The notes below the pieces were generated by a model, which did no database searches, had not been told where the DNA came from, and saw only the letters and a program-made list of their open reading frames with translations. Positions 28,017 through 62,886 of a stretch of DNA of 64,000 nucleotides are shown piece by piece. The stretch is taken from assembly GCA_016188965.1 (NCBI GenBank), contig JACPGT010000002.1, positions 84,125-148,124 of the forward strand. Direction: 5' to 3'. The stretch's first letter is position 1. Every line of letters begins with the position of its first letter. Both the position numbers and the translations under genes were made by a program. Origin of the DNA: Candidatus Micrarchaeota archaeon (GTDB lineage Archaea > Micrarchaeota > Micrarchaeia > Norongarragalinales > Norongarragalinaceae).

Positions 28017-28754
28017 TTAGTCTCCTTCGTTCTTGATTTCAACGCGGCCACGGCGCCGGCCCGTGCGGCTGGACGCGATGTGGCCGACTTTCTGGCCCGG
28101 AGGCGCGTTGCGCGACACGGACGAGGACTTGCCGAAACTGCGGCCGCCGTGCGGGTGGTCATAAGCTGACTTGGCCGTGCCACGGACGACGGGCCAGTAC
28201 TTGTTGCGCGACTTCATCGCGTAGAAGCTGTTGCCGGCCTTCTGCAGGGGCTTTTCCAGCCGGCCGCCGCCCGAAGCGACGCCGACGGTGGCCCAGCATT
28301 CCGGGGAAAGGGTGCGCACGCGCTTGGACGACAGGCGCACGCTGACCTGGTTGGTGTCCTCATCGTGGCCCACGATCAGAGAGGACGAGCCGGACGCGCG
28401 AGAGACGCGGCCGCCGTCGCCGGGGCGCAATTCGAGGTTGAAGACGGACACGCCTTCCGGCACTTTTTCCAACGGCATCACGTTACCTGACCTCAAGGCC
28501 GCGTCGGTTCCTACTTGGATCAAGTCGCCGGCTTTCAGGCCTTCGGCGGCCAGGTACGTCATGCGTTTGCCGTTCTCGAGCAGGATGTCAGCCATGACGG
28601 TGGAATGCGCAGGGTCGGTGAGCAACCGCATGACCTGTCCGCGCATGGTGCCGGACACGTGGACGTATTGCGTGGCGTCATAGAAGCGGTGCGACGGTGT
28701 CTTGAACGCCGGTCCGCCCTTGCCTCTGCGCTGCGGGATGAGTCGAGTGCCCAT
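28017..28754 (-). CDS. rpl2: 50S ribosomal protein L2 (uL2)
   Basis: RPGDGGRVSRASGSSS..GTAKSAYDHPHGGR. Confidence 0.96.
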   Translation of the reverse strand: MGTRLIPQRRGKGGPAFKTPSHRFYDATQYVHVSGTMRGQVMRLLTDPAHSTVMADILLENGKRMTYLAAEGLKAGDLIQVGTDAALRSGNVMPLEKVPEGVSVFNLELRPGDGGRVSRASGSSSLIVGHDEDTNQVSVRLSSKRVRTLSPECWATVGVASGGGRLEKPLQKAGNSFYAMKSRNKYWPVVRGTAKSAYDHPHGGRSFGKSSSVSRNAPPGQKVGHIASSRTGRRRGRVEIKNEGD

Positions 28755-28769
28755 TCTAAATGCACCTAA

Positions 28770-28845
28770 GCCCCAGGGGGCACCAAGGTTCCCCCTTGGC
28801 GCTTAGTCCGCCTCGTCCCCCTCCTTGCGGAAGGGTGTTGGGGGT
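28770..28845 (+). repeat. short copy (X1) of the G/C-tract hairpin repeat family X
   Basis: CCCCAGGGGG-N10-CCCCCTTGG hairpin followed by TCCGCCTCGTCCCCCTCCTT. Aligns to the first ~65 nt of X2 (44091-). Sits in the 113-nt L2-L23 spacer. Confidence 0.6.
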
Positions 28846-28867
28846 GTTGTTGAATCGTGTTTTCATT

Positions 28868-29116
28868 CTAAATCACTTTGAGTTTGCCGGCCAGCTCCGT
28901 GGCGGCGCCTTTGCGTGCGAACCGGACGACGGCCTTCTTGTGGCCCCGGATGCTGTGCAGCGTCCGGACGGCCTTGACTTTTTCCTTGTATTCCGTCTCA
29001 AGCTCGGCCTTGATCTGCGCTTTGGTCGCGTTTTCGCGCACCACGAATACCAGCTGGTTGTCGCGTTCGATGCCGGCCACGGCCTTTTCCGTCGTCAGTA
29101 CGTGTTGGATGATCAT
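28868..29116 (-). CDS. rpl23: 50S ribosomal protein L23 (uL23)
   Basis: LTTEKAVAGIERDNQLVFVV, 82 aa. Confidence 0.93.
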   Translation of the reverse strand: MIIQHVLTTEKAVAGIERDNQLVFVVRENATKAQIKAELETEYKEKVKAVRTLHSIRGHKKAVVRFARKGAATELAGKLKVI

Positions 29117-32655: not shown

Positions 32656-32856
32656 GCCGCCCTCCGCTTCGGGCATTCTTTTGACGCCGGTTTTCCGGCA
32701 ACTTCCTTCTTTTCCAATCCTCTTTGCGTTCTTTTCTTTGACGCGGGCTTTCGTCCGGAAATGAAAACGCTTTAGAACGCTTCGTGACAAAAGGAAAGAA
32801 CTTCGAAAGCCAAGGTGTTTGCCGCCGATTGCAGGAATCGGCGGTTTCGCTCAATT

Positions 32857-34319: not shown

Positions 34320-35483
34320 TCAAGCAATCTTCTGCATTGCTTTTTCCCAAGCCGCCGTGATGCTGACGACGTAGTTGCGCGTCTCGCCAAAGCGGTGGTT
34401 GCGGCAGGTGTTGGCGTTTTTGGTTTGAACTTCGCGGTCGTAGGGTCCGGCGTTGTAGGCGGCCAAGGCGCATTCGACGTTGCCGCTGGTCCTCAATTGG
34501 CGGGAGAGATATTCGACGCCGCCGCATATGTTGAAGTACGGGTCGAATACTTTGTCCTGTCCGATGCCCATGCCGGCCGCCGTCCCCGGAGTCATCTGGG
34601 TGTAGCCCTGCGCGTATTTCGATTCGGCGAACTGCCTCCCGCCGCTTTCCTGACCCAAGACCGATCGCAGCAGTGAATACGGAACGTGGTACAATTCGGA
34701 CGCCTTCTTGAAGATGCAGGTCGGATCCGCCGTGCGCCATGAGCGGCCGCGGTAAGTCGCCGTGCCCGTCTGGGGGCAGGCGGATTCAACCTGCTTGACG
34801 CAGGCAGTCACGCCGGCTAGCTGGACTTGCGTTGTCTGGAATTCCGCCCGCGTTCTGACATCGTACGCGCCCGCCGTGGTCACGGGCTTGGGCTGCGTTG
34901 GCGTCACGGTTGCTGGGGCGGTTTTGCAGATGGTTTCGACGTCGCGTTGTGCGATGCCGGCGCGGCGGAGTTCGAAGTAGAGGGAGGGAAATGCGTTGGC
35001 TTCGGATTTTCCGGTTTTGCCGATGGTTTCGCCTTTTTTGACGTCGCTGCCTTCGGTTGGGTTAGGTCCGGTTTGGAGGTAGCCGTATGTTGTTTCGACC
35101 GTCGGGTTTGTCGCGTGTCGGATGGTGACGTATCGTCCGTAACCTAGCAAGTCGGTTCTGCCCGAGGCGATGACTTTGCCTCCGCTTGCGGCCCGTACGT
35201 CTGTTCCTTCGGGTAGGCGGATTTCGACGCCTTGGCGGATGCGTTTTTCGTTGTTGAGGTTTTTGTATTCGGCTCCGTATGCGCCGGTGACCGGTGCGTT
35301 GACGGGGCAGGTGAAGCTGGTGGTGGAGTAGGTGGTGCCGGTGGGTCCGGGTTTGATTTGTTCTAGTGTGAATCCGGAGAATAGGCAGATGTGGTTGGAC
35401 GGGCAGGATGGAAGCGTGAGGGCGAAGATGAGGCTGGAGTAAAGCAGGACGATTAGGATTGCAATCCCCGCAATGCGCCGCAT
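34320..35483 (-). CDS. secreted murein hydrolase: degenerate M23/LytM-like module plus SLT lytic transglycosylase
   Basis: Signal/TM MRRIAGIAILIVLLYSSLIFA. LytM-like core GVEIRLPEGTDVRAA..GYGRYVTIRH..LYFELRR lacks HxH. C-terminal SLT motifs VLGQESGG, YTQMTPGTA, LAAYNAG. ATG 35483. Confidence 0.8.
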   Translation of the reverse strand: MRRIAGIAILIVLLYSSLIFALTLPSCPSNHICLFSGFTLEQIKPGPTGTTYSTTSFTCPVNAPVTGAYGAEYKNLNNEKRIRQGVEIRLPEGTDVRAASGGKVIASGRTDLLGYGRYVTIRHATNPTVETTYGYLQTGPNPTEGSDVKKGETIGKTGKSEANAFPSLYFELRRAGIAQRDVETICKTAPATVTPTQPKPVTTAGAYDVRTRAEFQTTQVQLAGVTACVKQVESACPQTGTATYRGRSWRTADPTCIFKKASELYHVPYSLLRSVLGQESGGRQFAESKYAQGYTQMTPGTAAGMGIGQDKVFDPYFNICGGVEYLSRQLRTSGNVECALAAYNAGPYDREVQTKNANTCRNHRFGETRNYVVSITAAWEKAMQKIA

Positions 35484-35538: not shown

Positions 35539-36597
35539 TCATGAGATGTACTTCGTGGGAAGCAAAAAGGCGCCGTAGTCGCCACCGGTGCGCAGTTCAA
35601 AATGCAGGTGGGCTCCCCGCGAGCTTCCACGGTCCGGATCGCTTGACGCTCCCCCGGTCAGACCCACTGCCTGCGATGTACTGACACGCTGGCCTTTGAT
35701 GACGTCGCGGCGTTTGAGATGGCCGTACCGTGCGAAGACCGGTTTTCCGTTCATGCGGCAGTCGCACTGGATCACGACTTCGCCGCCGTAACCGCCGACG
35801 TCCTCCGCCCAACTGGTGTGCACGACTCCATCGCATGCCGCCGTTGCCACGGTTCCGGAAGCCACTCCGACATCGTCCCCTTTATGGTACCGGTAGCCTC
35901 CTGAACCCGTGGGCCGCAACTCCCCGGCGTGACTTCCCACCAAGGCCGGATAGTTGCCCGGCACCGGAGACTTGAAGTGGCAAGCGCCGGTCTGGGGCAG
36001 CAATGCAGCGGCCGGCGGAGCCGTGGCCTTGGTTTTGCAGATGTTTTCGACGTCGCGCTGCGCGATGCCGCCGCGGCGCAACTCAAAATAAAACGAAGGA
36101 AACGCGTTGGCTTCGGATTTTCCGGTTTTGCCGATGACTTCGCCTTTTTTGACATCGGTGCCTTCGACTGGGTTGGGGCCGGTCTGAAGATACCCATACG
36201 TCGTTTCGACCGTCGGGTTCGTCGCGTGGCGGATGGTGACGTACCGGCCGTAGCCGAGTAGGTCGGTTCTGCCGGAGGCGATGATTTTTCCGCTGGCCGC
36301 TGCTCGTACGTCTGTGCCTTCTGGTAGGCGGATTTCGACGCCTTGCCGCACCCGCTTCTCGCCATTGAGATTGACATATTCGCCGCCGTATGCGCCGGTG
36401 ACGGGTGCGTTGACGGGGCAGGTGAAGCTGGTGGTGGAGTAGGGGGTGCCGGTGGGTGTGGGTTTGATGGGTTCGAGGGTGATTCCGGAGAAGAGGCAGA
36501 CGTGGTTGCCCGGACACGACGGCAAGGTTAATGCCGATGCGGCGGCTGCCGAAAAAACCAAAGCGAATACAGCCGCCAGTACGGCGCGGTTTTCCAT
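35539..36597 (-). CDS. secreted murein hydrolase: degenerate M23/LytM-like module plus catalytic M23 peptidase
   Basis: The N-terminal ~190 aa are nearly collinear with 34320-35483. The C-terminal module has YHKGDDVGV (HxxxD) and GAHLHFELR (HxH). Confidence 0.8.
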   Translation of the reverse strand: MENRAVLAAVFALVFSAAAASALTLPSCPGNHVCLFSGITLEPIKPTPTGTPYSTTSFTCPVNAPVTGAYGGEYVNLNGEKRVRQGVEIRLPEGTDVRAAASGKIIASGRTDLLGYGRYVTIRHATNPTVETTYGYLQTGPNPVEGTDVKKGEVIGKTGKSEANAFPSFYFELRRGGIAQRDVENICKTKATAPPAAALLPQTGACHFKSPVPGNYPALVGSHAGELRPTGSGGYRYHKGDDVGVASGTVATAACDGVVHTSWAEDVGGYGGEVVIQCDCRMNGKPVFARYGHLKRRDVIKGQRVSTSQAVGLTGGASSDPDRGSSRGAHLHFELRTGGDYGAFLLPTKYIS

Positions 36598-37352: not shown

Positions 37353-37465
37353 TTGCGCCTTATCCTGACGTCGGCCGCCTTGCGTCCGCCGTTGCCCGAA
37401 TCGGGTCGTAAAGGTCATGCAGAACTTGCGTTTGCGCCCGGCAGGGCCAAACGCTTTGCTCAAAA

Positions 37466-37603
37466 GCCTCGGTAGCTCAGACGAGCCCATCTTTTCTTTG
37501 CGAAAGAAAAGCTAGGCGCCCCAAAAGAAACAACAAGAAAAGCCGGATAAAGGAAAAACGAAGCTTCAAAAACAGCGCACAACCAAAAAAGCAATGCAAA
37601 ATT
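37466..37603 (+). repeat. 15-nt duplicate of the tRNA-Thr(CGU) 5' end plus hairpin element Y2
   Basis: 37466-37480 is identical to 37604-37618 (GCCTCGGTAGCTCAG). It is followed by GAGCCCAT-CTTTTCTTT-GCG-AAAGAAAAG-CTAGGCGCCCC-AAAAGAAAC.., which shares 14-nt and 28-nt identical blocks with the tRNA-Leu(UAA) intron. Confidence 0.7.
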
Positions 37604-43803: not shown

Positions 43804-43986
43804 GGAGGAGTGTCCTGAGTCTGGCCAAAAGGGCAGGACTTAAGAGCCGCCCATCTTTTCTTTTTGATAAAAAGAAAAGCTAGGCGCCCCAAAAGAAAAA
43901 CCGTCTAGCGCGCGAATCATACAGCTTCAGCGGCTAAGTCATCCTGTGGCTTTGTGCCTTCGGGGGTTCAAATCCCCCCTCCTCCA
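43804..43986 (+). tRNA. tRNA-Leu(UAA) with 96-nt canonical (37/38) intron carrying hairpin element Y3
   Basis: Acceptor GGAGGAG/CTCCTCC+A. Anticodon stem CAGGA/TCCTG, loop CT-TAA-G. Intron 43845-43940 forms a strict hBHBh' (central CTTA/TAAG, bulges AGA and TCA, inner GCCGC/GCGGC). Long variable arm. T arm GGGGG-TTCAAAT-CCCCC. Mature length 87 nt. Confidence 0.88.
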
Positions 43987-44066
43987 CTTTTGATTCGTAA
44001 GACTAAACTCGGGGGTTCGGGGTAACGTAGGACTATAGGGGGCGGAGCCCCCTGTGGTCCCGCGGC

Positions 44067-44089
44067 GGGTTCAAATCCCCCCTCCTCCA
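44067..44089 (+). repeat. 23-nt duplicate of the tRNA-Leu(UAA) 3' end
   Basis: GGGTTCAAATCCCCCCTCCTCCA at 44067-44089 is identical to 43964-43986. No matching 5' acceptor strand lies between the copies. Confidence 0.75.
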
Positions 44090-44090
44090 T

Positions 44091-44336
44091 GGTCGCCCCG
44101 GGGGAAACGCTGTTTCCCCCTGGCGCACCCTCCGCCTCGCCCCCTTCCTTTACGATTCTCAAATACTAGTTTGAGGGAGGGGCTGGAGGACATCACAATT
44201 TCCTGCCGGAAATTGTGTGGGCCCCCAATTCCGTAAGAATTGGGAGCACCTGAAACTGAAGGGGGAAACGTGGTTACCGACGGTCTTGCTTGACCGTCGG
44301 TTTCTTCCGCGCCCCCTGCGGTTCCGGTTGCAAATC
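44091..44336 (+). repeat. full-length copy (X2) of the G/C-tract multi-hairpin repeat family X
   Basis: Modules: GGTCGCCCCGGG, hairpin GGGGGAAAC/GTTTCCCCC, CCTCCGCCTCGCCCCC, GAGGGAGGGGC, hairpin CACAATTTCC/GGAAATTGTG, hairpin CCCAATTC/GAATTGGG, hairpin ACCGACGGTC/GACCGTCGGT, end CCCCCTGCGGTTCCGGTTGCAAATC. Collinear with X3. Confidence 0.65.
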
Positions 44337-44350
44337 CCTACTCCGTTGAA

Positions 44351-53193: not shown

Positions 53194-53789
53194 ACGATCA
53201 CGTTGATGAGGCCCAGGCCGTTGGTGGGCAACCCGTCGATGATGGCACACGGTACGGCGACGGGGTAGGTGAACGTCACGGCGTCCGCCGGCACCTTTAG
53301 GATTTCGTTCGTTCGGGGGTTGGGCACGTTGGTGCAGTACGTCCACGTGTGTCCATATACTTCGTTGGGGTCGCTTGATTCGGTCCGTGTCTTTTCCAGG
53401 TACGTCGGGCTCAAGCGGGCTTCCTGGGGCGCCGGATTCTCCCTCGGATAATAGAACCGTATCCCGTGCTGGCCTGGCGGTTCGACGCAGTATCGTTTGA
53501 TGGTCACGACGAACTGGATGTGGTTGGACAATGCGTATTTCTTGAGGTTGTTGTCACACGTCTTCTTTTCGAATTCGGTCTGGTTTTGGATGAGGCCTTT
53601 TTCCGTCACGATGTATGACAGACCCAACCCGGCTTGCCTTGTTTCCAGCGTCCGGTTCTTTCCCGTGACCAGTCCGTTGGCGTACACGAGGGTGCCGACG
53701 AACAGCAGGACGGCGGCGATGATGGGAAAGATGCTGGGCAGGTCGTCCCCCAATGGGCCTACGAATCCGCGTTTTTGTTTCATACGCAT
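53169..53789 (-). CDS. type IV pilin-like protein (class III signal peptide)
   Basis: MRMKQKRG/FVGPLGDDLPSIFPIIAAVLLFVGTLVYA. Only the last 206 codons of the 466-aa ORF are used. Confidence 0.6.
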   Translation of the reverse strand: MRMKQKRGFVGPLGDDLPSIFPIIAAVLLFVGTLVYANGLVTGKNRTLETRQAGLGLSYIVTEKGLIQNQTEFEKKTCDNNLKKYALSNHIQFVVTIKRYCVEPPGQHGIRFYYPRENPAPQEARLSPTYLEKTRTESSDPNEVYGHTWTYCTNVPNPRTNEILKVPADAVTFTYPVAVPCAIIDGLPTNGLGLINVIVWKERGKI

Positions 53790-54853
53790 TTGGGTCTGCC
53801 TCCCGTGATGGCGTTCGGCGCTCCAGTAGCCGGGTCGTTCGCCAGCGCTTCCCATCCGCAGCATTGCAGGACGGGATTCTGCAGTTTTTCGCTCAACGAC
53901 GTGACGTTGGTGTTGATGCGGGGGTCGCACGTGGCCGGGTTGAGGGCGACGCCCAGCCGCTCGCCGCAAGACCGCGCGTACAGGTAACTGACGCTGCCGC
54001 TTTTCTTGGGCCGGCACTTGGCCATGACCAGGTAGTAGTCCCGCCATTGCAGGTCCGACGGTTTGAGTACCAGGTTTGCCTCGGCTTGCCAGCGCGAGAG
54101 CATGGTGACCGGGTCGGCCAGGATGATGGATTTGTCGTACACCGCGCGTGCGTAACCTTCGCAACCCGAGCCGGACTGGACGTGGACCACCAGCGATCCG
54201 CTGCCTTGGCCGTCCGTTGCGGACGAGGGGATGTTGGTGATGTTGATGGAGTACCGTTCCAGTTGGCTCTTGCCGACGGAAAGCGATGATTCCAGCGTGT
54301 AGACCTTGCGCTCGTCCTCGACCGGCGAGTTGATGACGTTCGTCAGCGTGGCGGCGATGTTGCGGGCCATAGACTGTGCTTGCGTCCGGCAGATGGATTC
54401 CTTCTGCGCGTCGGAAAAGCTCACCATGATGGCCGCCAAGGTGATGATGAAAAAGACCATAGCGAATTTGGTGAGCATGAACAAGGCGATTTGTCCCCGT
54501 AATCCCCGGGGGGCACATGGTTCCCCCCTGGAGATTCCGCACAAGTCCGTGGGGGACTTGTGGGGCCACACAAATTCCCGTGAGGAATTTGTGCTGACTC
54601 CTCCTCGCCCCCCTCCTCGGGAAGTGGTGGAGGCCCAGGGCGGGCCAGGGAGAAACCGAAGGTGTCTCCCGGGGCGACCGCGTGATTTCGTGAGCATGAA
54701 CCAGGCGATTGGTGCCCGGGTTGTCTGGCTTTGCGGGGGTTCTCGGCGAGGGCTTCGGGCCGCGTTGGGCGTTGCCTCGTCGTCGGATGCCATGACAGCA
54801 GAAACGCAGGCCGTTGTTTTAACCGTTTGGCCTTCCACGTGGGTTTGTGGCAC
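53780..54853 (-). CDS. type IV pilin-like protein whose 5' region contains repeat X3 (start codon uncertain)
   Basis: RGQ/IALFMLTKFAMVFFIITLAAIMVSF at 54491-54499 and downstream. Upstream in frame lies the Gly/Arg/Pro-rich translation of X3 and a duplicated IAWFMLTK. Confidence 0.5.
   Translation of the reverse strand: MPQTHVEGQTVKTTACVSAVMASDDEATPNAARSPRREPPQSQTTRAPIAWFMLTKSRGRPGRHLRFLPGPPWASTTSRGGGRGGVSTNSSREFVWPHKSPTDLCGISRGEPCAPRGLRGQIALFMLTKFAMVFFIITLAAIMVSFSDAQKESICRTQAQSMARNIAATLTNVINSPVEDERKVYTLESSLSVGKSQLERYSINITNIPSSATDGQGSGSLVVHVQSGSGCEGYARAVYDKSIILADPVTMLSRWQAEANLVLKPSDLQWRDYYLVMAKCRPKKSGSVSYLYARSCGERLGVALNPATCDPRINTNVTSLSEKLQNPVLQCCGWEALANDPATGAPNAITGGRPKCV
54494..54683 (-). repeat. 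copy X3 of repeat family X, inverted relative to X2, flanked by an imperfect 29-bp direct repeat
   Basis: Collinear with X2 when read on the minus strand: GGTCGCCCCGGG.., CACAAATTCC/GGAATTTGTG, ACAAGTCC/GGACTTGT, CCAGGGGGG../CCCCCCGGGG. Direct repeats 54465-54493 and 54684-54712 match at 25/29 positions. Confidence 0.65.
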
Positions 54854-54863
54854 TCCTTCCTTT

Positions 54864-55577
54864 TCAGCGGTTGGCCGGCACGGCGCACATCTTGATCTGC
54901 GTGTGTCCCCTGAGGTCGCCTACGGAAAGTATCTTGTTGAACGTGATGAGGTATTGCCGGGTGTCCGAGCTTCCCAGCGTCACCCAATTCGAGCGGGCTG
55001 CGATGTCCGGCGAGATGCCCAAATCGGCTTCGCACGCGTGGCTGCCGTCCGAACACGGCGTGACCCGAAGCTCGGTGCAGCCCTGCTGCGTCCCTTGGTC
55101 TTCGATGCTCACCCGTTCGGCCGGCAGTTCGATGCACGTGATGGCGTCGCTGACGCGCTCGAAGCCGTCCTTGGTCTTGGCCACGGGTACGATCTGCCAA
55201 CATCCCGCGTAATGCCCCGGACAACGCTTGCACAGCTCCGGATTAGTGAATTTGACGAATTGGATGCTTTCAATCGTCTGGTCGCCGCAGCGCGGCATGG
55301 AAAACCGCACCGTCTTCTTGCTTCCGGCCGAGCCGAGGCCCACGTCCAGAATGGCTTCCTGCAGTTGCTGCGTCTGGGTCTTGAGCGTGGCCAGGCAACG
55401 GCCCGTCTCGGTCTGGCCCATGACGTAGAACGCCAGGCCCATGCTGGTCACGAGGATGATGATGGCCACGACCAATTCAATCGGGGCGTCCATTTGTCCC
55501 CGAACCGCGGGGGGGACGCTTCCCCTCCCCAGTTTGAGGTTCTTCCGGCCCCTCCCCTCATTTTTGTGCGTGAACAT
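54864..55577 (-). CDS. type IV pilin-like protein with partial repeat X4 in its pre-sequence
   Basis: MFTHKNEGRGRKNLKLGRGSVPPAVRGQ/MDAPIELVVAIIILVTSMGLAF. ATG 55577. Confidence 0.55.
   Translation of the reverse strand: MFTHKNEGRGRKNLKLGRGSVPPAVRGQMDAPIELVVAIIILVTSMGLAFYVMGQTETGRCLATLKTQTQQLQEAILDVGLGSAGSKKTVRFSMPRCGDQTIESIQFVKFTNPELCKRCPGHYAGCWQIVPVAKTKDGFERVSDAITCIELPAERVSIEDQGTQQGCTELRVTPCSDGSHACEADLGISPDIAARSNWVTLGSSDTRQYLITFNKILSVGDLRGHTQIKMCAVPANR
55497..55560 (-). repeat. truncated copy X4 of repeat family X
   Basis: Minus strand GAGGGGAGGGGCCGGAAGAAC..GGGGAAGCGTCCCCCCCGCGGTTCGGGGAC matches the purine-rich module and the 3' end of X3 and X2. Confidence 0.55.
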
Positions 55578-55625
55578 TACCTTTTGTTGACGTGTGCAGC
55601 TGGCTTGCAATTGAATGCGCATGTT

Positions 55626-56623: not shown

Positions 56624-58927
56624 TCAGCCGAAGAAGGAACTGGCCAGAAAGACCGTTACACAGTACAGGATGACGGCCAGAGGCACGTTTTTGGCAATCG
56701 ACATGTAGTTGTGCAGTTCGTTGTCCGTATCCTCGATCTGGGCGTTGAAATACGACAGGAGGATGACGACTTCCAGCACGTAGACGCCCAGGATAAGGAT
56801 GAACAATCCCGGTTCGGCCGCTTTTTCCAGGGCCGTGGGGTTGAACAGGTTGCCGAAACCGCCGCCGCCTAACCCCCCCAGGCCTCCGCTGGCTTCGGCG
56901 CCGGCCTCCACGCCCGAGCCGCCTTGTGAGGCGATGCTGGTGATGATGAGCCGCTGCATGGCTGAGACCACGCCCAGCACGATGGGCGCGATGAACGAAG
57001 CCATGGTCCCGAGCATGACCGTCACGTCTTGCAGGAGCTTGCGGAGTGATTCGTTGATTTTTTCCGAGTTGCGAAGCTGCATGGACAGCGAGATGAGCGA
57101 GCGGGCGGCCACGTCCACGCCTAAGTCTACTGAATCGACGAGGAACTGCATGCCGCTGCGGATGATCTGCGATGGCACCAAGCGCAATGCGCCGAAGGTC
57201 TTGTCGAAAATGGACGATTCCAGCGTCATGCCCAGCGTGGAAATGTTCTCGACGATGCGTCGGAAAACGTTGCGGCCGATCTGGCTTTTCGGCAGGAAGG
57301 CGACGGCGGAGCGCAACGCCTCTTCGATGGGTTTGTTCTCGCCCATGCGCGAGGCCAGTACGTACATGGCGTCCTTGAATTCCGTCTCCATGGCGCGGAC
57401 GTCGTCTTGCACCTTCTTGCGGGCGGAGTACTTGCCGGTGAGGTAATTGCTGATGGCAAGTCCGAGGCCGATGATGAAACCGAAGATGGTGAACTGGCCG
57501 ATGAAAAAACCGTTCTGGGCCGCGAGGCGGATGTGCGGAATCTTTTTGTACTCTTCGGCCAGCGCCGAGGGGTTGGCGTCCGCGGAAGACGATGCCTCCA
57601 ATACCGGCAAAGCGTCTAAAATGCGTTCCTGCCGCTCACTGGGTTGTACCAGGAACGGATCGATTCCGCCTAAGGTGCCCGTGATGCGGATGCCTTCGGC
57701 CAGGGGGCTGGACGGGTCGAAGCCGGGATTGTCCGGCTCGATTAAGTGCATCAATGGCAGGTACGCGGCGTTGTTGACTACGTCTTGCGTCACGCCGATG
57801 TCGGTGAAGTAGCCCAGCGCCAGGGCGCCGATGACCAACAACAGCGCCGTCATGCCGAACGGAGGCGTGGGGGGTAGGCCGGGAAAGTTTGCCGGAATGC
57901 GGGGAGGGCGGTTCGTCGGCGGCTTGTTGGCCAGGATGCTTTTTCCGAACATGAACACGCCGATGGGAATGACGAATACGTACAACGCGATGAGGAAGAA
58001 CGGGCTCGAAATGAGTTCGTTGTTCGCAAGGGATGCGCCGATGGGCAGCAGGATGGCCATCAGAAGCGGAAGCAGGATTCCGAAGTAATACAGATAGACC
58101 GTGGGCTGCTGTAGCTTGCGGGCGTACAAATCCATCTTTTCCTTGCTGCCTTCCAACACGTCCTGGCCGGCCTTGTCCAACAAGGCGAAGCGGCGTTCCT
58201 TGTCGCCTTCCAGGATGGATGCGCGGATCATCATCAACGCATGTTTGAAGTCGTCGTTGTACACGCCCCAGCGGTATGCCAGTTCATCGAGGCCTTCCTC
58301 TACGGACTCGTAGCGGCCGATCTGCACGTCCCAAACGATTTTCTTGAGGTCTTCGGCAATCTTGCCTTGCCCGTGGTTCGCCGCGAATTCTACGGCCCGC
58401 TCCAAATTGGGCGTCAGGCGCATGCTCATGGTGAGGTAGTTGACGATTTCCGGAACGTACGCCAGGCTCTCGATCTTCTCTTTCTCGACTTGTGAGAACG
58501 GAATCTTGCGGTACATGCGCGAGATGACGAATGGCAACGCGACGAGTACCAGGCCGATGCCGCCTTTGATGGTGATGTCGACGCTTTCGCCGGCTACGAA
58601 GAATATCGTCGCGGCCAGCACCAAGCCGATCCACATACCGGTGCCTTGGATGCCTTTGTACGCCGCGCAGAACTGCTCGGGCGTGATGTCCCAGCCCAGA
58701 AAAGCGATGGCGTCCGCTTCGTCGTCGGTGAACTTGCCGCCTTTTCCGTACGACGCGAAGGATTTGGCCAGGTTATGTGTGGTCTTGACGAACGCCGGCG
58801 TCTGCGGCGGGCCTTTGTGGGTATCCTCGAAGTCCGAGTACGCGGCGGCGCCTTGCGAGTAGAGGCCTTGCGGCTTACCTGGCTTTTCGGGCTTTACGCT
58901 TCGCGCCGGTTTGTCGGAAGGGGGCAT
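56624..58927 (-). CDS. polytopic pilus/archaellum platform protein (FlaJ/TadC/GspF-like)
   Basis: 767 aa with many TM helices and two cytoplasmic T2SS-F-like helical regions (YLTMSMRLTPNLERAVEFAANHG..; FKDAMYVLASRMGENKPIEEALRSA). Directly downstream of the ATPase. Confidence 0.65.
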   Translation of the reverse strand: MPPSDKPARSVKPEKPGKPQGLYSQGAAAYSDFEDTHKGPPQTPAFVKTTHNLAKSFASYGKGGKFTDDEADAIAFLGWDITPEQFCAAYKGIQGTGMWIGLVLAATIFFVAGESVDITIKGGIGLVLVALPFVISRMYRKIPFSQVEKEKIESLAYVPEIVNYLTMSMRLTPNLERAVEFAANHGQGKIAEDLKKIVWDVQIGRYESVEEGLDELAYRWGVYNDDFKHALMMIRASILEGDKERRFALLDKAGQDVLEGSKEKMDLYARKLQQPTVYLYYFGILLPLLMAILLPIGASLANNELISSPFFLIALYVFVIPIGVFMFGKSILANKPPTNRPPRIPANFPGLPPTPPFGMTALLLVIGALALGYFTDIGVTQDVVNNAAYLPLMHLIEPDNPGFDPSSPLAEGIRITGTLGGIDPFLVQPSERQERILDALPVLEASSSADANPSALAEEYKKIPHIRLAAQNGFFIGQFTIFGFIIGLGLAISNYLTGKYSARKKVQDDVRAMETEFKDAMYVLASRMGENKPIEEALRSAVAFLPKSQIGRNVFRRIVENISTLGMTLESSIFDKTFGALRLVPSQIIRSGMQFLVDSVDLGVDVAARSLISLSMQLRNSEKINESLRKLLQDVTVMLGTMASFIAPIVLGVVSAMQRLIITSIASQGGSGVEAGAEASGGLGGLGGGGFGNLFNPTALEKAAEPGLFILILGVYVLEVVILLSYFNAQIEDTDNELHNYMSIAKNVPLAVILYCVTVFLASSFFG

Positions 58928-59022
58928 GGATTACATTAGGCACGGAAAACGGGGTTTTAAGGGCATCGATTTTGAGGCGGCCAAAAAGCGGTGGCGTCAG
59001 GGAATGCTTTGCCGGCCCGGAT

Positions 59023-62000
59023 TTATTCGGCCGCGACGGTCGCCTGTTTCTGCCGCACCAGGTCGGCGACGAGTTCGGAGTCGACCCAGGCCTTCCAGTC
59101 GGCCATCAGCTTGGGGTAATCCAAGTTGCCGGTCTCCTCGCGCTGCTTTTCCGTCAAGATCAGGTAATGCATGTGGGCCCGCACGGCGTACTCGGCTTCC
59201 AAGAGCCGGGGGATGCCGTACTGGTTCTTCTGGTCCACCAAGTATTGTTTGGTCTGGCCGCGGGCGAGGATCTCGTTCCACACTTCGTCCGCATCCAGGC
59301 CGCGCATGCGCTGGACTTTCTTGAGCCACTCGCTTTTGCCTATGATGTCGTCCTTGAAGATCTCCAAATCATCCTTGTTGGCGTCGAACGTCATCCAGTT
59401 GACGAAACCGTGCTCTTTGCCGGGGTCGGACTCCCAGTCCTTGAGCACTTCCGTCACCTCGATGAGGCGGCGGTGGCGCTTGAGCGAGCCTTTGAACCGG
59501 ATGGGTGCGGCCACCACGCAGAAGTCCGTGGCCTTGAAACTCGTCGTCGGCACGCCCAAGTCGTTCACCACACGGTCCCAGATGGAATATGCGGATTCGC
59601 CGTGGATGGTGCCCATGACGACGTTGCCCACGGCACCGACACGCATGGCCTCGTACAATGCCTTGGCTTCACCCGAACGCACTTCGCCCACGATCAGCAC
59701 CGAGTCTCCCAGACGCAAGGCCGTACGGAGGGCGTCTTCGGCCGACACTTCCGACTCCGTGCCGCCGCCCAAAGGAGGCCGCGTCTTCATGCGCTGGATG
59801 GAGAGGCCCAATTTTTTCATCTGCGGAACGGGAAGCTCCTGCGTGTCTTCTTGCACGAGTACCCTCAAGTTTTGAGGCAGTTCCAGCATCATGGCCTGCA
59901 GAAGCGATGTGTTGTGGGCGATGATGCCGTTGGCCACGAAGGAGTGCGTCCCGTCAACAGTGAGGTCGTAGACGTATGGTCCGGATGGCGCGACTTTTTC
60001 GATTTGGACGACTCGGTCCCAGTACAGTTCGGAGTGCGCCAGGTTGTGCATCTGGCGGATTTTTTCATCATCCGGCTTTTTTTCGAGGGCATCGTGGGCG
60101 ATTTGTTGCAATTTGTTCCGGCCGATTTCGTGCTGATCAAGGCTCGTTTTTCCGAAGCCGTATTCCTTTTTCGTGTGTTCCAGCAAGGCCCACGCGTTCG
60201 GAATGACGTCGACGTTGGAGTTGAATTTCCGTCCCTTCAGCATGTCCTCTAAGCGTTTTTGCTTGTCGGGGTGGCCGAATCCGATGCGTTGGGCAAACCG
60301 CAGGCAGTTATCCCCCCGGATGAAGCCACGGTAATACTCGGTCCCGTTGACTTGTTTGGGTTTCCGGATGCTTTGGATTCCGAAGCGGAGCAGCGCGTAC
60401 TGCATTTGCTCGGCCATTTTAGGGCTTGCGGTGCAGAACTCGATTTCCGTCTTGTCTTTCCGGACGCTGGAGTCGCAATCGAAATATCCCTTGATGAATT
60501 CGGCCAAGCCGGCGTCGGATGCGGACAAGATTTCGTTCGGCATTTCTTGGAACGGCGCTTTTTTCCCACTGGGCAGGCCGAAACGGCCCCGCACCATCCG
60601 GCTGACGGCCCGCGAGGACACTTGGTACATGGGCGAGCGATTCTTGGGATGGCGGATTTTACCTTTTGCGCCGAAGACTTGTTCCGACAATTTCTGGAAG
60701 TCGGCCAGCAGTGTCGGGTGGGTGTTGGTGAACGTCAGCTCCACGTCATCGACGTGACCGTCGCCGTACAACAGCCCCAGAAGCCGGGCGTATTCCATCG
60801 TCATCCGGTCCGTCAGGATTCCTGCGTTCATCACGTGGTTCGAGTTGTTGGATTTGACGTCATTCAGTTGGCTGACGTATTGGCCAATCTCACTGCCGGT
60901 GTATTGCGCGATTTTTTCCATTTCTTCGAACGAAACAGCATTGCGGACGCCGTTCTTGAGGTTGGCCGCGGTCCTGTAATTCATCCCCATGGCGGCGGCT
61001 GCAATGTTCAGCGGCGTTTTTTGCTGTATTCGAGTCAATCTCTCCCTGGCAAGGGGTGCCAGTTCGGGGTATTTGAGTCCGAAAAGGTGAGACTGTTCCC
61101 GCATCCGGTCCAAATCAAGGCCTTTGGTTTGGCCCGAGTGCGTCGGAATCGTCCTGGGCGTGGCGACGAATCCTCCGGTCTTAAGTTCATCCGCTCGGAT
61201 TTGCGTCACGAATCCTTCTTTGACCGTGAAGAAGGGGTGTTCCGGCGTCGTGGTGATTTGCTTTCCGGAGGCCAGCATGATTTTGAACATTTCGGCGGGT
61301 GCGCTGCGACGCCAAACCTTCTCAACCGGCGCAGCTCGGACTTTCAAATCCGACGTCATGGTCAAAATATCCAATCCGTTGCATTCGGCGTAGCATCCGT
61401 CTTCGATTAACGTCGGGTTGTGGAGGTTTTCTTCCACAAGCTGTTCGATCCGTTTCAGGCTTCCGTCGGCCATCTGGATAAGCGTATCGCCTTCCAGGCA
61501 TTTTCCGGCGCCACGACTGCCCACGATGAGCATGGATGCCTGGGCGTCGACGAAGAAGGACAGCATGCCGGCGGCAAAGCTGCCGAATGCCTTGCCATCG
61601 ACGAACTGCGCCAGGGTCCACGGCGTCTGCTTGTGCAACCGTAAGGCAAACGCGATGCCGTCGAGCGCAAGGGGTTTTCCGATGACGGCGATGCGCGTCT
61701 GCAAGTCCTCCAGGTCGAAGTCCAGGATGGGGTGCGCCTCGTCAAACGGCCGGCCGGAGAGGGCGCGGAATCGTGAGACGATGCTTCTGGCTTCTTCGTT
61801 GGAAAAGATGACGTTCGTCTGGCATTGGCCGTACTTGCCGTGCACCAGGTAGATGGGTTTGTCGCCCAAGGGCGAGTCGATGTATACGTCGGTCACGCGG
61901 CGGTCGGACAGAAGCACTTCCATGATGCCGTAGCCGATAGTGTAGCGCGCCACGATGGACGCCAAGTCTTCTTTTTCTTCGACGGAGAGCTTGATGTTGT

Positions 62001-62886
62001 TCTTCAGCGCCAAGTCGGCGATGGTCGCCACATAGACCTTGCGGAAGTACTTGCGGGCTTGCGTGATGTCCAAGAATTGCACGCTTTCCGGCCGGTGCTG
62101 CGCCACCACTTCCTTGGTCTTTTCCAGCAGGAAGTATTTTTCCGGCGGCAGGCTGTACTCCGGAGGATTGATGAAGTAAAGGTACTGCACCTGGTCGGGG
62201 TGGCGGTAGATGTAGACCTTGCTGCCGCCCACGTCGTACTGGTCGACCAGTTCGAGCTGCTCGGTCGCGGAAAAGAAGATGCGCGAGCCGATGAAGGACG
62301 GCTTGATCGAGCTTTCGAAGAACGCGTGGTACGCGGTGCGGCCTTCCGGGATGCTGCCCAGCTGGGACAAATAGTCTTTCATGGCCTGGATGAGCTTCAT
62401 CTCTTCCATCTTCTGCCGCATGTAGCGCAGCGTGCCCAGGTAAATCTGCACGTCTTCGGCATTGGGCCCGGCGGCGGCTGCCTGCGCGGCGACGGTTTTC
62501 ATCTCCTGCACCAGCGTCAGGTAGGCCTTGAACGGGTCGGACTTGATTTGGGCCATGATGCGCAACACGGCGTCATGTCGCGGGCCCAAGGTCTTGGATT
62601 CCGTCGTCTTGCCCAGGTGCGACGGGCTCCAGACGGCGTCGGCTTCCAGGTTGTTGACCAAGTCGGCGACTTCGCGCAGCCAGCCGGTCTGCTTCTCATC
62701 GTAGATGCGTTCGTAGTACTCGCTGAGCACCACTTCGTCCGCGTCGGCTTCGCGCAGCTTCTCGACGACGTCTTGGAATGCCTGGCCGTACTGGGCGATG
62801 TCGGGGCCCCAGGCCATGCCGCGGTAGTCGATGACCAGTCGCTTTTTGCCGCCGTCGCTTTTCACGACGGCCTGTCCGGGAGCCAT
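59023..62886 (-). CDS. GspE/VirB11/FlaI-family secretion or pilus ATPase interrupted by an intein
   Basis: Walker A GSRGAGK|..|TSLLQ. After the intein come VLVQEDTQEL (Walker B/Asp box), LRLGDSVLIVGEVRSGEA and GTIHGESAYS (His box). The extein totals 757 aa. Confidence 0.85.
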   Translation of the reverse strand: MAPGQAVVKSDGGKKRLVIDYRGMAWGPDIAQYGQAFQDVVEKLREADADEVVLSEYYERIYDEKQTGWLREVADLVNNLEADAVWSPSHLGKTTESKTLGPRHDAVLRIMAQIKSDPFKAYLTLVQEMKTVAAQAAAAGPNAEDVQIYLGTLRYMRQKMEEMKLIQAMKDYLSQLGSIPEGRTAYHAFFESSIKPSFIGSRIFFSATEQLELVDQYDVGGSKVYIYRHPDQVQYLYFINPPEYSLPPEKYFLLEKTKEVVAQHRPESVQFLDITQARKYFRKVYVATIADLALKNNIKLSVEEKEDLASIVARYTIGYGIMEVLLSDRRVTDVYIDSPLGDKPIYLVHGKYGQCQTNVIFSNEEARSIVSRFRALSGRPFDEAHPILDFDLEDLQTRIAVIGKPLALDGIAFALRLHKQTPWTLAQFVDGKAFGSFAAGMLSFFVDAQASMLIVGSRGAGKCLEGDTLIQMADGSLKRIEQLVEENLHNPTLIEDGCYAECNGLDILTMTSDLKVRAAPVEKVWRRSAPAEMFKIMLASGKQITTTPEHPFFTVKEGFVTQIRADELKTGGFVATPRTIPTHSGQTKGLDLDRMREQSHLFGLKYPELAPLARERLTRIQQKTPLNIAAAAMGMNYRTAANLKNGVRNAVSFEEMEKIAQYTGSEIGQYVSQLNDVKSNNSNHVMNAGILTDRMTMEYARLLGLLYGDGHVDDVELTFTNTHPTLLADFQKLSEQVFGAKGKIRHPKNRSPMYQVSSRAVSRMVRGRFGLPSGKKAPFQEMPNEILSASDAGLAEFIKGYFDCDSSVRKDKTEIEFCTASPKMAEQMQYALLRFGIQSIRKPKQVNGTEYYRGFIRGDNCLRFAQRIGFGHPDKQKRLEDMLKGRKFNSNVDVIPNAWALLEHTKKEYGFGKTSLDQHEIGRNKLQQIAHDALEKKPDDEKIRQMHNLAHSELYWDRVVQIEKVAPSGPYVYDLTVDGTHSFVANGIIAHNTSLLQAMMLELPQNLRVLVQEDTQELPVPQMKKLGLSIQRMKTRPPLGGGTESEVSAEDALRTALRLGDSVLIVGEVRSGEAKALYEAMRVGAVGNVVMGTIHGESAYSIWDRVVNDLGVPTTSFKATDFCVVAAPIRFKGSLKRHRRLIEVTEVLKDWESDPGKEHGFVNWMTFDANKDDLEIFKDDIIGKSEWLKKVQRMRGLDADEVWNEILARGQTKQYLVDQKNQYGIPRLLEAEYAVRAHMHYLILTEKQREETGNLDYPKLMADWKAWVDSELVADLVRQKQATVAAE
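59911..61500 (-). mobile_element. 530-aa intein with LAGLIDADG homing-endonuclease domain
   Basis: Residues 463-992: block A CLEGDTLIQMADGS, block B TTTPEHPF, LAGLIDADG motifs LLGLLYGDGHV and LAEFIKGYFDCDSS, blocks F/G YVYDLTVDGTHSFVANGIIAHN, then Thr+1. Confidence 0.85.

Follow-up and report, generated by a model that had tools for sequence, protein, structure and literature searches.

An in-frame insertion, probably of a mobile repeat, in the leader of a type IV pilin-like gene of a Candidatus Micrarchaeota archaeon

Rickettsia palindromic elements (RPEs) are selfish repeats that lie in frame in protein-coding genes and are translated at positions where this is tolerated (PMC10969869). Here we describe a repeat family, called X below, in a stretch of 64,000 nucleotides from a Candidatus Micrarchaeota archaeon (assembly GCA_016188965.1, contig JACPGT010000002.1, positions 84,125 to 148,124 of the forward strand); this whole stretch is referred to as the window, and all coordinates without a locus label are positions in it. 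X is a small, non-coding, hairpin-rich repeat family whose matches, in the scans made, are found in Micrarchaeota only. One of its copies, X3, lies on the minus strand within a type IV pilin-like gene, pilin A, between two copies of the sequence that encodes the predicted processing site and the start of the mature helix. X3 is probably a mobile repeat that was inserted in frame, with a long target duplication, into a dispensable class III leader.

Pilin A is preceded on the minus strand by a promoter-like B recognition element/TATA box, CCAAACGGTTAAAA (54817 to 54830), which ends about 23 nt 5′ of an ATG codon (54791 to 54793). The promoter role of this box is read from the established spacing of archaeal TATA elements, and the short distance between the box and the ATG suggests a leaderless mRNA. 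When loci were compared, a box of the form AAACGGTTTAAAA or TTTAATAC was found equally spaced from the first ATG in L001 to L007 and in L037 (L-numbers are locus labels), and the spacing between box and start codon is kept in all orthologous loci. From ATG 54793, a single open reading frame (ORF) for a precursor of 337 amino acids extends to the stop codon at 53780 and is open through copy 1 of the duplicated sequence, X3 and copy 2. In translation, the ATG is followed by a leader segment of 24 codons, ASDDEATPNAARSPRREPPQSQTT (54719 to 54790), and then by copy 1, CGGGCACCAATCGCCTGGTTCATGCTCACGAAAT (54685 to 54718), which reads R-A-P-IAWFMLTK. Copy 1 is a partial, decaying copy that adjoins the 5′ end of the element, with a junction filler of 5 nt, CACGC (54680 to 54684), between the two.

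X3 (54500 to 54679, 180 nt) is a long-form copy of X that consists of G/C-tract hairpins, as identified by nhmmer, blastn and folding. It runs from GGTCGCCCCGGG to GGGGATTA, and its 60-nt 5′ core (54679 to 54620) is followed by more hairpins including a hairpin at the 3′ end. The core was recognized by an nhmmer profile of 24 distinct cores with E = 2e-10, and blastn showed that X3 is similar to a second long form in the window (X2) and to the elements of L002 and L017. X3 folds better than shuffled sequences, with z = -3.7 on the coding strand and z = -2.4 on the other strand. The element ends in ...CCCCCCGGGGATTA, after which come CGG GGA CAA (54499 to 54491), encoding R-G-Q, and then IALFMLTKFAMVFFIITLAAIM. 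This succession of G/C element, R-G-Q and hydrophobic helix had been proposed in an initial annotation of the window and was confirmed in the sequence. Copy 2, CGGGGACAAATCGCCTTGTTCATGCTCACCAAAT (54466 to 54499), reads R-G-Q-IALFMLTK and spans the class III cleavage motif as well as the beginning of the mature helix; the hydrophobic helix, FAMVFFIITLAAIMVSF, follows it directly, and the mature pilin-like protein A extends from Q101 to the stop (53780 to 54493).

The repeat of 25 out of 29 matching positions that had been reported around the element proved to sit within a longer direct repeat, in which 54466 to 54499 and 54685 to 54718 are identical at 30 of 34 positions (88%) with a spacing of 219 nt, or 73 codons (repeat search). 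By our own estimate, a match of 30 out of 34 within 300 nt is expected about 2e-6 times per 64 kb. The two copies differ by three nonsynonymous changes and one synonymous change. Several details of the initial annotation had to be revised. The element that it described is real, but its proper start is GGTCGCC at 54679, the preceding bases (54684 to 54680) being filler. An ATG is present between the two copies (54518 to 54516), contrary to the statement that there is none, although it is out of frame; an in-frame GTG is found at 54571 to 54569. Finally, a pre-sequence of about 68 amino acids had been considered, which gives way to one of 100 amino acids from the in-frame ATG 54793 that had been missed about 23 nt past the conserved promoter-like box. 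The corresponding NCBI protein, HYV43_01185, is identical but only 232 amino acids long, its annotated start being the M of MLTK. Two Logan assemblies (L035 and L036), made from other sequencing runs, were 100% identical to the window over the promoter, both copies and X3, and an assembly artefact is ruled out by these two independent identical assemblies.

The closest database entries of ORF A are hypothetical proteins of Candidatus Micrarchaeota, which belong to the DPANN archaea. At copy 2, RG|QIALFMLTKFAMVFFIITLAAIMVSF forms a [K/R]-[G/A] cleavage motif joined to a hydrophobic helix of about 20 residues. The sequence (V)RGQ or RAQ followed by IALWMLTKFAMVFF is kept in 15 orthologues, and the combination of R-G/A-Q with the helix, as judged from sequence, marks these proteins as carrying an archaeal class III (type IV pilin-like) signal peptide. 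Among the orthologues, 2 to about 25 residues precede the R-G/A motif, the shortest precursor starting with MRA|Q, and orthologues free of an insert have leaders of 3 to 26 amino acids.

Insertions of this kind are recurrent among the orthologues. X-derived inserts are found in L001, L002, L003 and L007 after MLTK, between duplicated copies of RGQIALWMLTK and at the same pilin codon. The spacings in these four loci (99, 279, 60 and 132 nt, respectively) are multiples of 3, and the frames are free of stop codons from the conserved ATG onward. The lengths of the pilin A inserts are 27, 66, 99, 186 and 246 nt, and the leader, which counts 100 amino acids from ATG 54793 in the window, ranges from 27 to 117 amino acids in the orthologues. 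A search of related genomes for an empty site, as had been suggested at the outset, was successful: the close relatives L004 and L005 lack the insert, and L005 comes from the same groundwater metagenome as the filled locus L002. Two further observations concern these loci. The empty pilin A alleles of L004 and L005 carry ..GCGGTTCGGGGACAA, which is the same junction as that between the 3′ end of X and RGQ in pilin B and in L002 (window 54500 to 54510); the 20- to 25-amino-acid leaders of L004 and L005 may thus go back to earlier insertions of X into a gene that originally began with MRGQ or MRAQ. In L003, a further X-like fragment, GGCACAATTCCCGCGGGAATCGTGTGGCCCGCAAG, lies in the long intergenic region (L003 2590 to 2800) 5′ of the pilin A promoter, and the usual pilin B neighbour is absent, which suggests that this locus is rearranged.

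The adjacent pilin-like gene B (54864 to 55622, minus strand) shows that pilin A is not an isolated case. Most of its leader is an X-derived segment (55499 to 55570) that joins RGQ through ..CCGCGGTTC|GGGGACAA. This segment is 83% identical to the 3′ part of the L017 element over 58 nt (blastn) and also matches L002. The native form of the gene, MRGQ-ADAPIELV, is found in L004 and L005; in-frame inserts, of independent or shared origin, are also present in L002, L006 and L007. Thus the initial view that neighbouring pilins all have short leaders does not hold, as the X-derived leader of gene B in the window is up to 42 amino acids long. The same in-frame insert pattern was observed in L015, another pilin-like gene.

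The reading frames of the inserts depend on what has been duplicated. Where the duplication contains no start codon, the insert is in frame in all ten loci (five of pilin A, four of pilin B, and L015), which partly share common ancestry and represent fewer than ten independent events. Where the duplication does contain an ATG, frames are mixed and only two of nine are in frame. This pattern is expected from selection if translation starts at the original ATG and reads through the element, and it favors the translated leader that had been listed among the possible explanations: all pilin inserts with no start codon in the duplication are in frame and free of stops from the conserved ATG. A single element can be read in two frames, giving GRPG in pilins and VAPG in a TrpG-like gene, and it is therefore the nucleotide element rather than a peptide that is conserved. 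It had been proposed that a mobile interpretation be abandoned if orthologues carried the same long leader with conserved amino acids; the inserts were found to conserve nucleotides and hairpins and not peptide sequence, and the mobile reading stands.

The X family was delineated by pattern, profile and blastn searches. The core of 55 to 60 nt has the form GGTCGCCCCGGG-hairpin-CTGG-hairpin-GCCTCGCCCC(T)TCC, and long forms measure 145 to 240 nt. Compensatory changes are found in both core hairpins; at one pair, for instance, 12 sequences have GC where 11 others have CG. When the 5′-core pattern was run against 596 Gb of GTDB species-representative genomes, all eight matches were in metagenome-assembled genomes of Micrarchaeota. 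The same pattern detected 19 metagenome loci, all with the same anatomy. It gave no viral match in IMG/VR, and a viral origin of X was dismissed on this ground. The window contains two other members besides X3 and the pilin B segment (both by blastn and the nhmmer profile). X2 (44091 to 44310, plus strand) is a long form whose core scored E = 5e-12. It begins 1 nt past a duplicated 3′ end of tRNA-Leu (44068 to 44090); nearby are an intron-containing tRNA-Leu(UAA) (about 43804 to 43988), a tRNA-like remnant (44011 to 44090) and a degenerate third copy of the tRNA end (44311 to 44345). The order tRNA-Leu|t|GGTCGCC is also found in L017. X1 (28766 to 28862, plus strand) is a degenerate member in antisense orientation between rpl23 and rpl2. 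On either side of it stands a copy of a 13- to 14-nt duplication, GTG(C)ATTTAGAATG (28752 to 28765 and 28863 to 28875); one copy provides the stop codon of rpl23 and the other the ATG of rpl2, so that both essential genes are intact.

With Rfam 15, only one tRNA passed in the window, and sensitive searches with X3 and X2 gave nothing near threshold, only tRNA-like T-arm echoes. A hepatitis delta virus-like or other 5′-cleaving ribozyme was considered and rejected, as no P1 partner for GGUCGCC was visible by eye and Rfam gave no match. In the literature on repeats, miniature transposable elements with inverted repeats (MITEs), target-site duplications and introns of Micrarchaeota and DPANN archaea, no description of an X-like element was found, and the family is apparently undescribed.

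The anatomy of insertion was compared in 26 distinct copies from the window and the other loci. Every copy is flanked by a direct target duplication of 14 to 95 nt (median 39, n = 26). Copy 1 always abuts the invariant GGTCGCC, with 0 to 5 nt of filler or an overlap of 1 to 2 nt, and the 3′ side of X is variable: many copies stop after 55 to 61 nt, and others have extra sequence, up to the long forms. The outer edge of the duplication falls 0 to 13 nt 5′ of the start codon, for example in TrpG-like, V-ATPase D-like, UvrA-like and SerB-like genes, or at or within a few bases of the stop codon, for example in a P-type ATPase and a TrxB-like gene; at tRNAs, it lies somewhere from the T-loop to the 3′ end. 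The intact gene is on the 3′ side of X and the partial copy on its 5′ side without exception in about 20 cases at protein genes. In X2, L017, L018 and L021, X starts 1 to 4 nt past the discriminator base of a tRNA. The 3′ end of the long form is a diverged T-arm and acceptor end of tRNA-Leu and, therefore, appears to be a flank carried along from a tRNA-Leu site; it also resembles the pilin target at 15 of 19 positions (GCGGTTCCGGTTGCAAATC versus GCGGTT-CGGGGACAAATC). The length of the duplicated block differs between events in one and the same gene, being 80 nt in L022 and 45 nt in L026. Element insertion with a long target duplication, one of the explanations offered in the initial annotation, is thus strengthened by relatives of X3 in the window and at 27 other Micrarchaeota loci, each with a duplication of 14 to 95 nt.

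Several observations on single insertions may be added. In a P-type ATPase gene (L016, 6417 to 6512), the duplication halts before the native stop codon, and the gene gains five codons (KGGEA) and stops within X. Among eight antisense insertions at gene 3′ ends, six (L008, L014, L016, L022, L033 and X1) have spacings that are multiples of 3; with a one-sided binomial P of about 0.02, this excess may be due to chance. In L022, the frame, read by eye, is open beyond the stop codon, through the element and into the second C-terminal copy.

The following course of events would account for what was observed directly at pilin A, namely the anatomy, family membership, taxon restriction, recurrence in orthologues and conservation of frame and promoter. 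X would have been inserted after the ..MLTK codons of a type IV pilin-like protein, and 33 to 34 nt that specify the prepilin-peptidase motif together with the opening residues of the mature helix would have been duplicated on both sides of it. We infer that the original promoter and the leaderless ATG 54793 still drive the gene, and that the ribosome reads copy 1 and X3 in frame, X3 adding a stretch rich in Arg, Gly and Pro, and continues into copy 2 to produce a pre-pilin with a leader of about 100 amino acids. The leader would then be cleaved off at the R-G|Q in copy 2, the sole copy followed by a transmembrane helix. Such an insertion could persist since a class III leader does not stay with the protein and can take up nearly any extension of basic character. 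The leader may, in this sense, be a safe landing site: it is cut off and is expected to be basic, and the Arg/Gly/Pro-rich translation of X would suit it. The discarding of the leader would also explain why X inserts recur in pilin leaders, are always in frame, and have suffered internal deletions that keep the frame.

Several points weigh against this explanation. Most known class III leaders of archaea have fewer than 30 amino acids, and a leader of 100 amino acids does not have that short basic form. In copy 1 of the window, R-G-Q has been lost (it is now R-A-P), and the segment 5′ of copy 1 is acidic and not basic; the upstream part could therefore be decaying and another start be in use, such as the in-frame GTG 54571 or the NCBI start at MLTK. 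Searches of Pfam and NCBIfam returned no family for pilin A, pilin B or their neighbours, and the label pilin is given because of the motif and the genomic context. This context is a region of pilus machinery (56624 to 62886, minus strand) that was recognized in a Pfam scan upstream of the row of pilin-like genes. It includes a match to PF00437 (T2SSE) in the ORF at 59023 to 62886 (E = 6e-11) and a weak match, under the curated cut-off, to PF00482 (T2SSF) in a polytopic protein encoded at 56624 to 58927 (E = 0.006). No mobile-element domains were found when Pfam was run on six large ORFs in the pilus locus together with two neighbouring ones. The T2SSE-type ATPase (1287 amino acids) also contains an intein with a LAGLIDADG homing endonuclease, at residues of about 471 to 992, which precedes the ATPase core.

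A further difficulty comes from the divergence of the flanking copies. Codon differences were counted in 19 events in which the frame is fixed by the protein, with the frame of L001 set by hand. Across the family, copy 1 and copy 2 differ by 87 synonymous and 14 nonsynonymous codon differences, compared to a neutral expectation of 17% synonymous, and the synonymous excess is significant (P < 1e-15) even against an expectation of 40% synonymous. The synonymous swaps include TCA/AGC for Ser and AGA/CGT and AGG/CGA for Arg. These counts contradict a simple model in which the target was duplicated and one copy then decayed neutrally. In addition, the X cores are at least 95% identical between loci or genomes whose duplications are 15 to 25% diverged. 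The junction ..CAAACGG|TCGCC is common to the TrpG-like genes of three genomes, the functional copies of which are 11 to 26% different. Some changes in the partial copies are damaging, namely RGQ to RAP in the pilin A studied here, HNLKN to HNLNN in the UvrA-like gene and L to P in the TrpG-like gene, and the downstream copy is, therefore, taken to be the working copy.

Several explanations were examined and rejected. Gene conversion as the sole cause of the synonymous bias would, by our reasoning, still predict about 60% nonsynonymous differences. A foreign origin of copy 1 was not apparent from base composition, since the differences had no consistent GC direction. A large transferred tract ending at X was not seen either, as sliding identity profiles of L002 against L005 and of L001 against L004 showed no step across the insert; between L034 and L029, the two flanks are 81% and 86% identical. 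A diversity-generating retroelement does not fit differences that are mostly synonymous and have no consistent GC/AT direction. The simplest reconciliations are that recombination with diverged relatives often exchanges the sequence on one side of X, X serving as a conserved crossover anchor; that X arrives together with flanking DNA of another lineage; or that the partial copies are still in use in some way.

Two rival explanations place the solution in the expression of the gene. The main one is that the 5′ leader formed by X3 is either not translated or open only by coincidence, perhaps with a regulatory role, translation starting at GTG 54571, at a TTG or at the ATG of MLTK. The loss of RGQ from copy 1 and the acidic segment upstream of it would be easily understood in this case, the GTG is in frame, NCBI places the start at MLTK, and short forms of X next to other genes often end in a Shine-Dalgarno-like GGTGA close before the downstream start codon. 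No such sequence is found close to GTG 54571, however, and a start at MLTK would drop the R-G-Q processing site that all orthologues have kept. Box and ATG are also conserved with a fixed distance between them, and although internal deletions have occurred independently, the frame is kept and stays open in five loci of pilin A, four of pilin B, and L015; overall, an internal start is considered unlikely. It is still more doubtful that X3 and one repeat copy form an intron that is cut from the pre-mRNA, by a broad-specificity endonuclease of the ARMAN type acting on a bulge-helix-bulge or by another kind of RNA excision. Splicing would give back a normal pilin mRNA with a short leader, translation of both spliced and unspliced forms would explain the protein constraint on both copies, this genome has long tRNA introns that ARAGORN missed, and unusual tRNA introns are numerous in the lineage. 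A scan for the motif (helix, 3-nt bulge, 4 bp, 3-nt bulge, helix) at corresponding sites in both copies nevertheless revealed nothing consistent in 22 loci, the best score in X3 (8 out of 10) being at chance level, and there was no Rfam match. Direct repeats cannot pair with each other, and about eight family members are antisense to the flanked gene, so that an RNA mechanism would need both strands of X. The strict in-frame, stop-free pattern in pilins would also be unneeded if the element were spliced out, and we regard an intron as very improbable.

The other two rivals concern recombination of the DNA. In one, the sequences left and right of X stem from distinct pilin alleles or lineages and were brought together at X or by means of it, through cassette exchange or homology-facilitated illegitimate recombination and not through duplication in situ. 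The almost exclusively synonymous differences between copies across the family speak for such a scar, as does the much stronger conservation of X than of its flanks, which would make it a good crossover anchor. In L003, copy 1 and the leader are of the RGQ type (nearest to L002 and L007), whereas copy 2 belongs to the RAQ type with a short leader and has ATT where L037 has its ATG start. L022 and L026 share a gene in which, by manual reading, copy 1 of one locus resembles copy 2 of the other at synonymous sites. For the window, the two copies are each other's closest relatives with four differences, and both have the derived TTC (F) where all other compared copies have TGG (W); filled and empty loci give identity profiles with no divergence step at the insert, and the first arrival of X would be left unexplained. 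Exchange of pilin cassettes, which the initial annotation had listed, is thus not needed here, given the W-to-F change shared by both copies, although L003 does look recombinant across its insert; as the origin of the window arrangement, we consider it improbable. The remaining possibility is programmed excision, in which recombination between the 34-nt copies removes X and switches leader length or expression, as in phase variation. A deletion from one copy to the other would preserve the frame and leave a normal gene, and filled (L002) and empty (L005) alleles do occur in one groundwater metagenome. These two loci are only about 85% identical over 7 kb and, therefore, represent different populations and not switching variants, and the insert is present in all three assemblies of the population of the window. 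The repeats are also imperfect (30 out of 34 here and down to 75% elsewhere) and too diverged for efficient recombination, which leaves excision with hardly any probability. We retain as the probable, well-supported explanation of the pilin case that a mobile repeat was inserted in frame with a long target duplication, for which RPEs are a known analogue.

From the anatomy of the family, we can also infer, more tentatively, how X may move. The mechanism that we prefer, although we would not call it likely, is one-ended copying from a template with the fixed 5′ end GGTCGCC. In one version, target- or break-primed synthesis would begin near a gene end or T-loop and run off at the 5′ end of the template; in another, strand transfer would follow a nick at the GGTCGCC site. 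Such a 5′ end could be supplied by the 3′ trailer of a tRNA after its release by RNase Z. The copy would take its variable 3′ flank along and would be joined at a break 14 to 95 nt inside the adjacent gene. This mechanism is favored because of the fixed 5′ and variable 3′ end, the carried flank, the filler or microhomology at junctions, the variable duplications, the strict orientation, and the start of X at 1 to 4 nt past the discriminator base. On the other hand, truncation at the 3′ end of X is the reverse of the 5′ truncation of long and short interspersed nuclear elements (LINEs and SINEs). Neither a reverse transcriptase nor an HUH nuclease or transposase came to light in the host genomes, in which no search aimed at such enzymes was made.

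We further put forward, as a speculation with a lesser chance of being right than of being wrong, that X is a new kind of archaeal mobile element, which is copied or transferred from one end, its fixed 5′ terminus, and becomes joined within a resident homologue of its flanking gene. If this were true, each event would leave a partial, often xenologous, copy of a gene terminus. DPANN archaea would then possess, in X, an element of a SINE-like or transducing kind, which would also mark or drive the exchange of gene ends among related genomes. Pilin leaders would be safe in-frame landing pads, and part of the long leaders in the "empty" orthologues would also be old X insertions.

Independently of its mode of movement, X has some implications. 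The pilin case suggests that long leaders can grow by selfish DNA landing in the discarded part of a secreted protein, and that automated annotation truncates such genes, as the NCBI start at MLTK omits the processing site. If the gene-end copies do come from other lineages, X may be used as a tracer of recombination between uncultivated DPANN populations; the alternative is that these copies are still used in some way.

Other features of the window and of the related loci deserve mention. A conserved tRNA-like module, CGGGGGTTCGGGGTAAC.TAGGACTA.AGGGG..CCCCT.GGTCC..GGGTTC..ATCC, accompanies long forms of X (window 44011 to 44090; L018, about 1270 to 1340). The same module is found, as the reverse complement, inside the pilin B insert of L002 (about 2050 to 2100), and it gives a weak transfer-messenger RNA/T-arm echo in Rfam. 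ARAGORN reported only one tRNA in the window, and other tRNA genes are present (also at 32853, 32966, 37449 and 37587). The tRNA-Leu(UAA) gene has, as read by eye, an intron of about 100 nt at the canonical 37/38 position. A 28-nt stretch at 43871 to 43898, in this intron, is 100% identical to 37503 to 37530, which follows the tRNA-like 5′ end at 37449, and the two may be parts of related, possibly mobile, introns. A 300-nt direct repeat (34920 to 35219 versus 36031 to 36330) has 84% identity and a spacing of 1111 nt.

Compared to known mobile and repetitive elements, X exhibits a combination of familiar and unusual features. Like RPEs, X is short (about 100 to 150 bp), structured, lineage-restricted, non-coding and present in frame within ORFs, where it would be translated as RPEs are (PMC10969869). 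Unlike RPEs, X lies mostly at gene termini, has target duplications of 14 to 95 nt, a fixed 5′ and a variable 3′ end and a DPANN host, and its in-frame cases are confined to cleavable pilin leaders. The archaeal MITEs, such as the SM elements of Sulfolobus, the haloarchaeal MITEs and the palindrome-associated transposable elements (PATEs), are like X small, non-autonomous, multicopy, hairpin-forming and lineage-specific. Their duplications are typically 2 to 10 nt, however, compared to 14 to 95 nt in X, which also differs from them in its strict orientation to the flanked gene. The termini of the long forms of X, inspected by eye, have an imperfect inverted match of about 8 to 9 out of 13 positions (the 3′ end, reverse-complemented, set against GGTCGCCCCGGG), and the short forms do not have the 3′ end. 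We know of no sequence relationship between X and RPEs.

Non-long-terminal-repeat (non-LTR) retroposons and SINEs share with X the variable target duplications, truncated copies, co-mobilized flanks and filler or microhomology at junctions. SINEs are further similar to X in their association with tRNA genes and in being non-autonomous and multicopy with an RNA-like structure. X differs from them in that it is truncated at the 3′ end and has no A-rich tail, and in that its flanking copies are not simple decaying duplicates. To our knowledge, SINE-like or non-LTR elements have not been described in archaea. Integrative elements at tRNA genes and other gene ends resemble X in leaving a partial copy of the gene end on one side and the intact gene on the other, in using tRNA 3′ ends as sites, and in displaced and intact copies that differ mainly synonymously. 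In X, in contrast, only 55 to 240 nt lie between the copies, there is no integrase, the targets are many and unrelated, and the block length varies with each event.

With respect to its host gene, pilin A resembles other proteins with class III signal peptides in having a basic leader that ends in R-G/A, then Q and a helix of about 20 residues, and in lying in an operon with a PilB-like ATPase and a weak PilC/T2SSF-like match. It is unlike them in that its predicted leader of about 100 amino acids is largely a mobile repeat and includes a second, decayed cleavage motif. Given its fixed 5′ end, long and variable duplications of gene termini, strict orientation and association with tRNA ends, the anatomy of X fits no standard transposon class and, more generally, matches no standard class of prokaryotic mobile element, and there is a real chance that the mechanism of its mobility is new.

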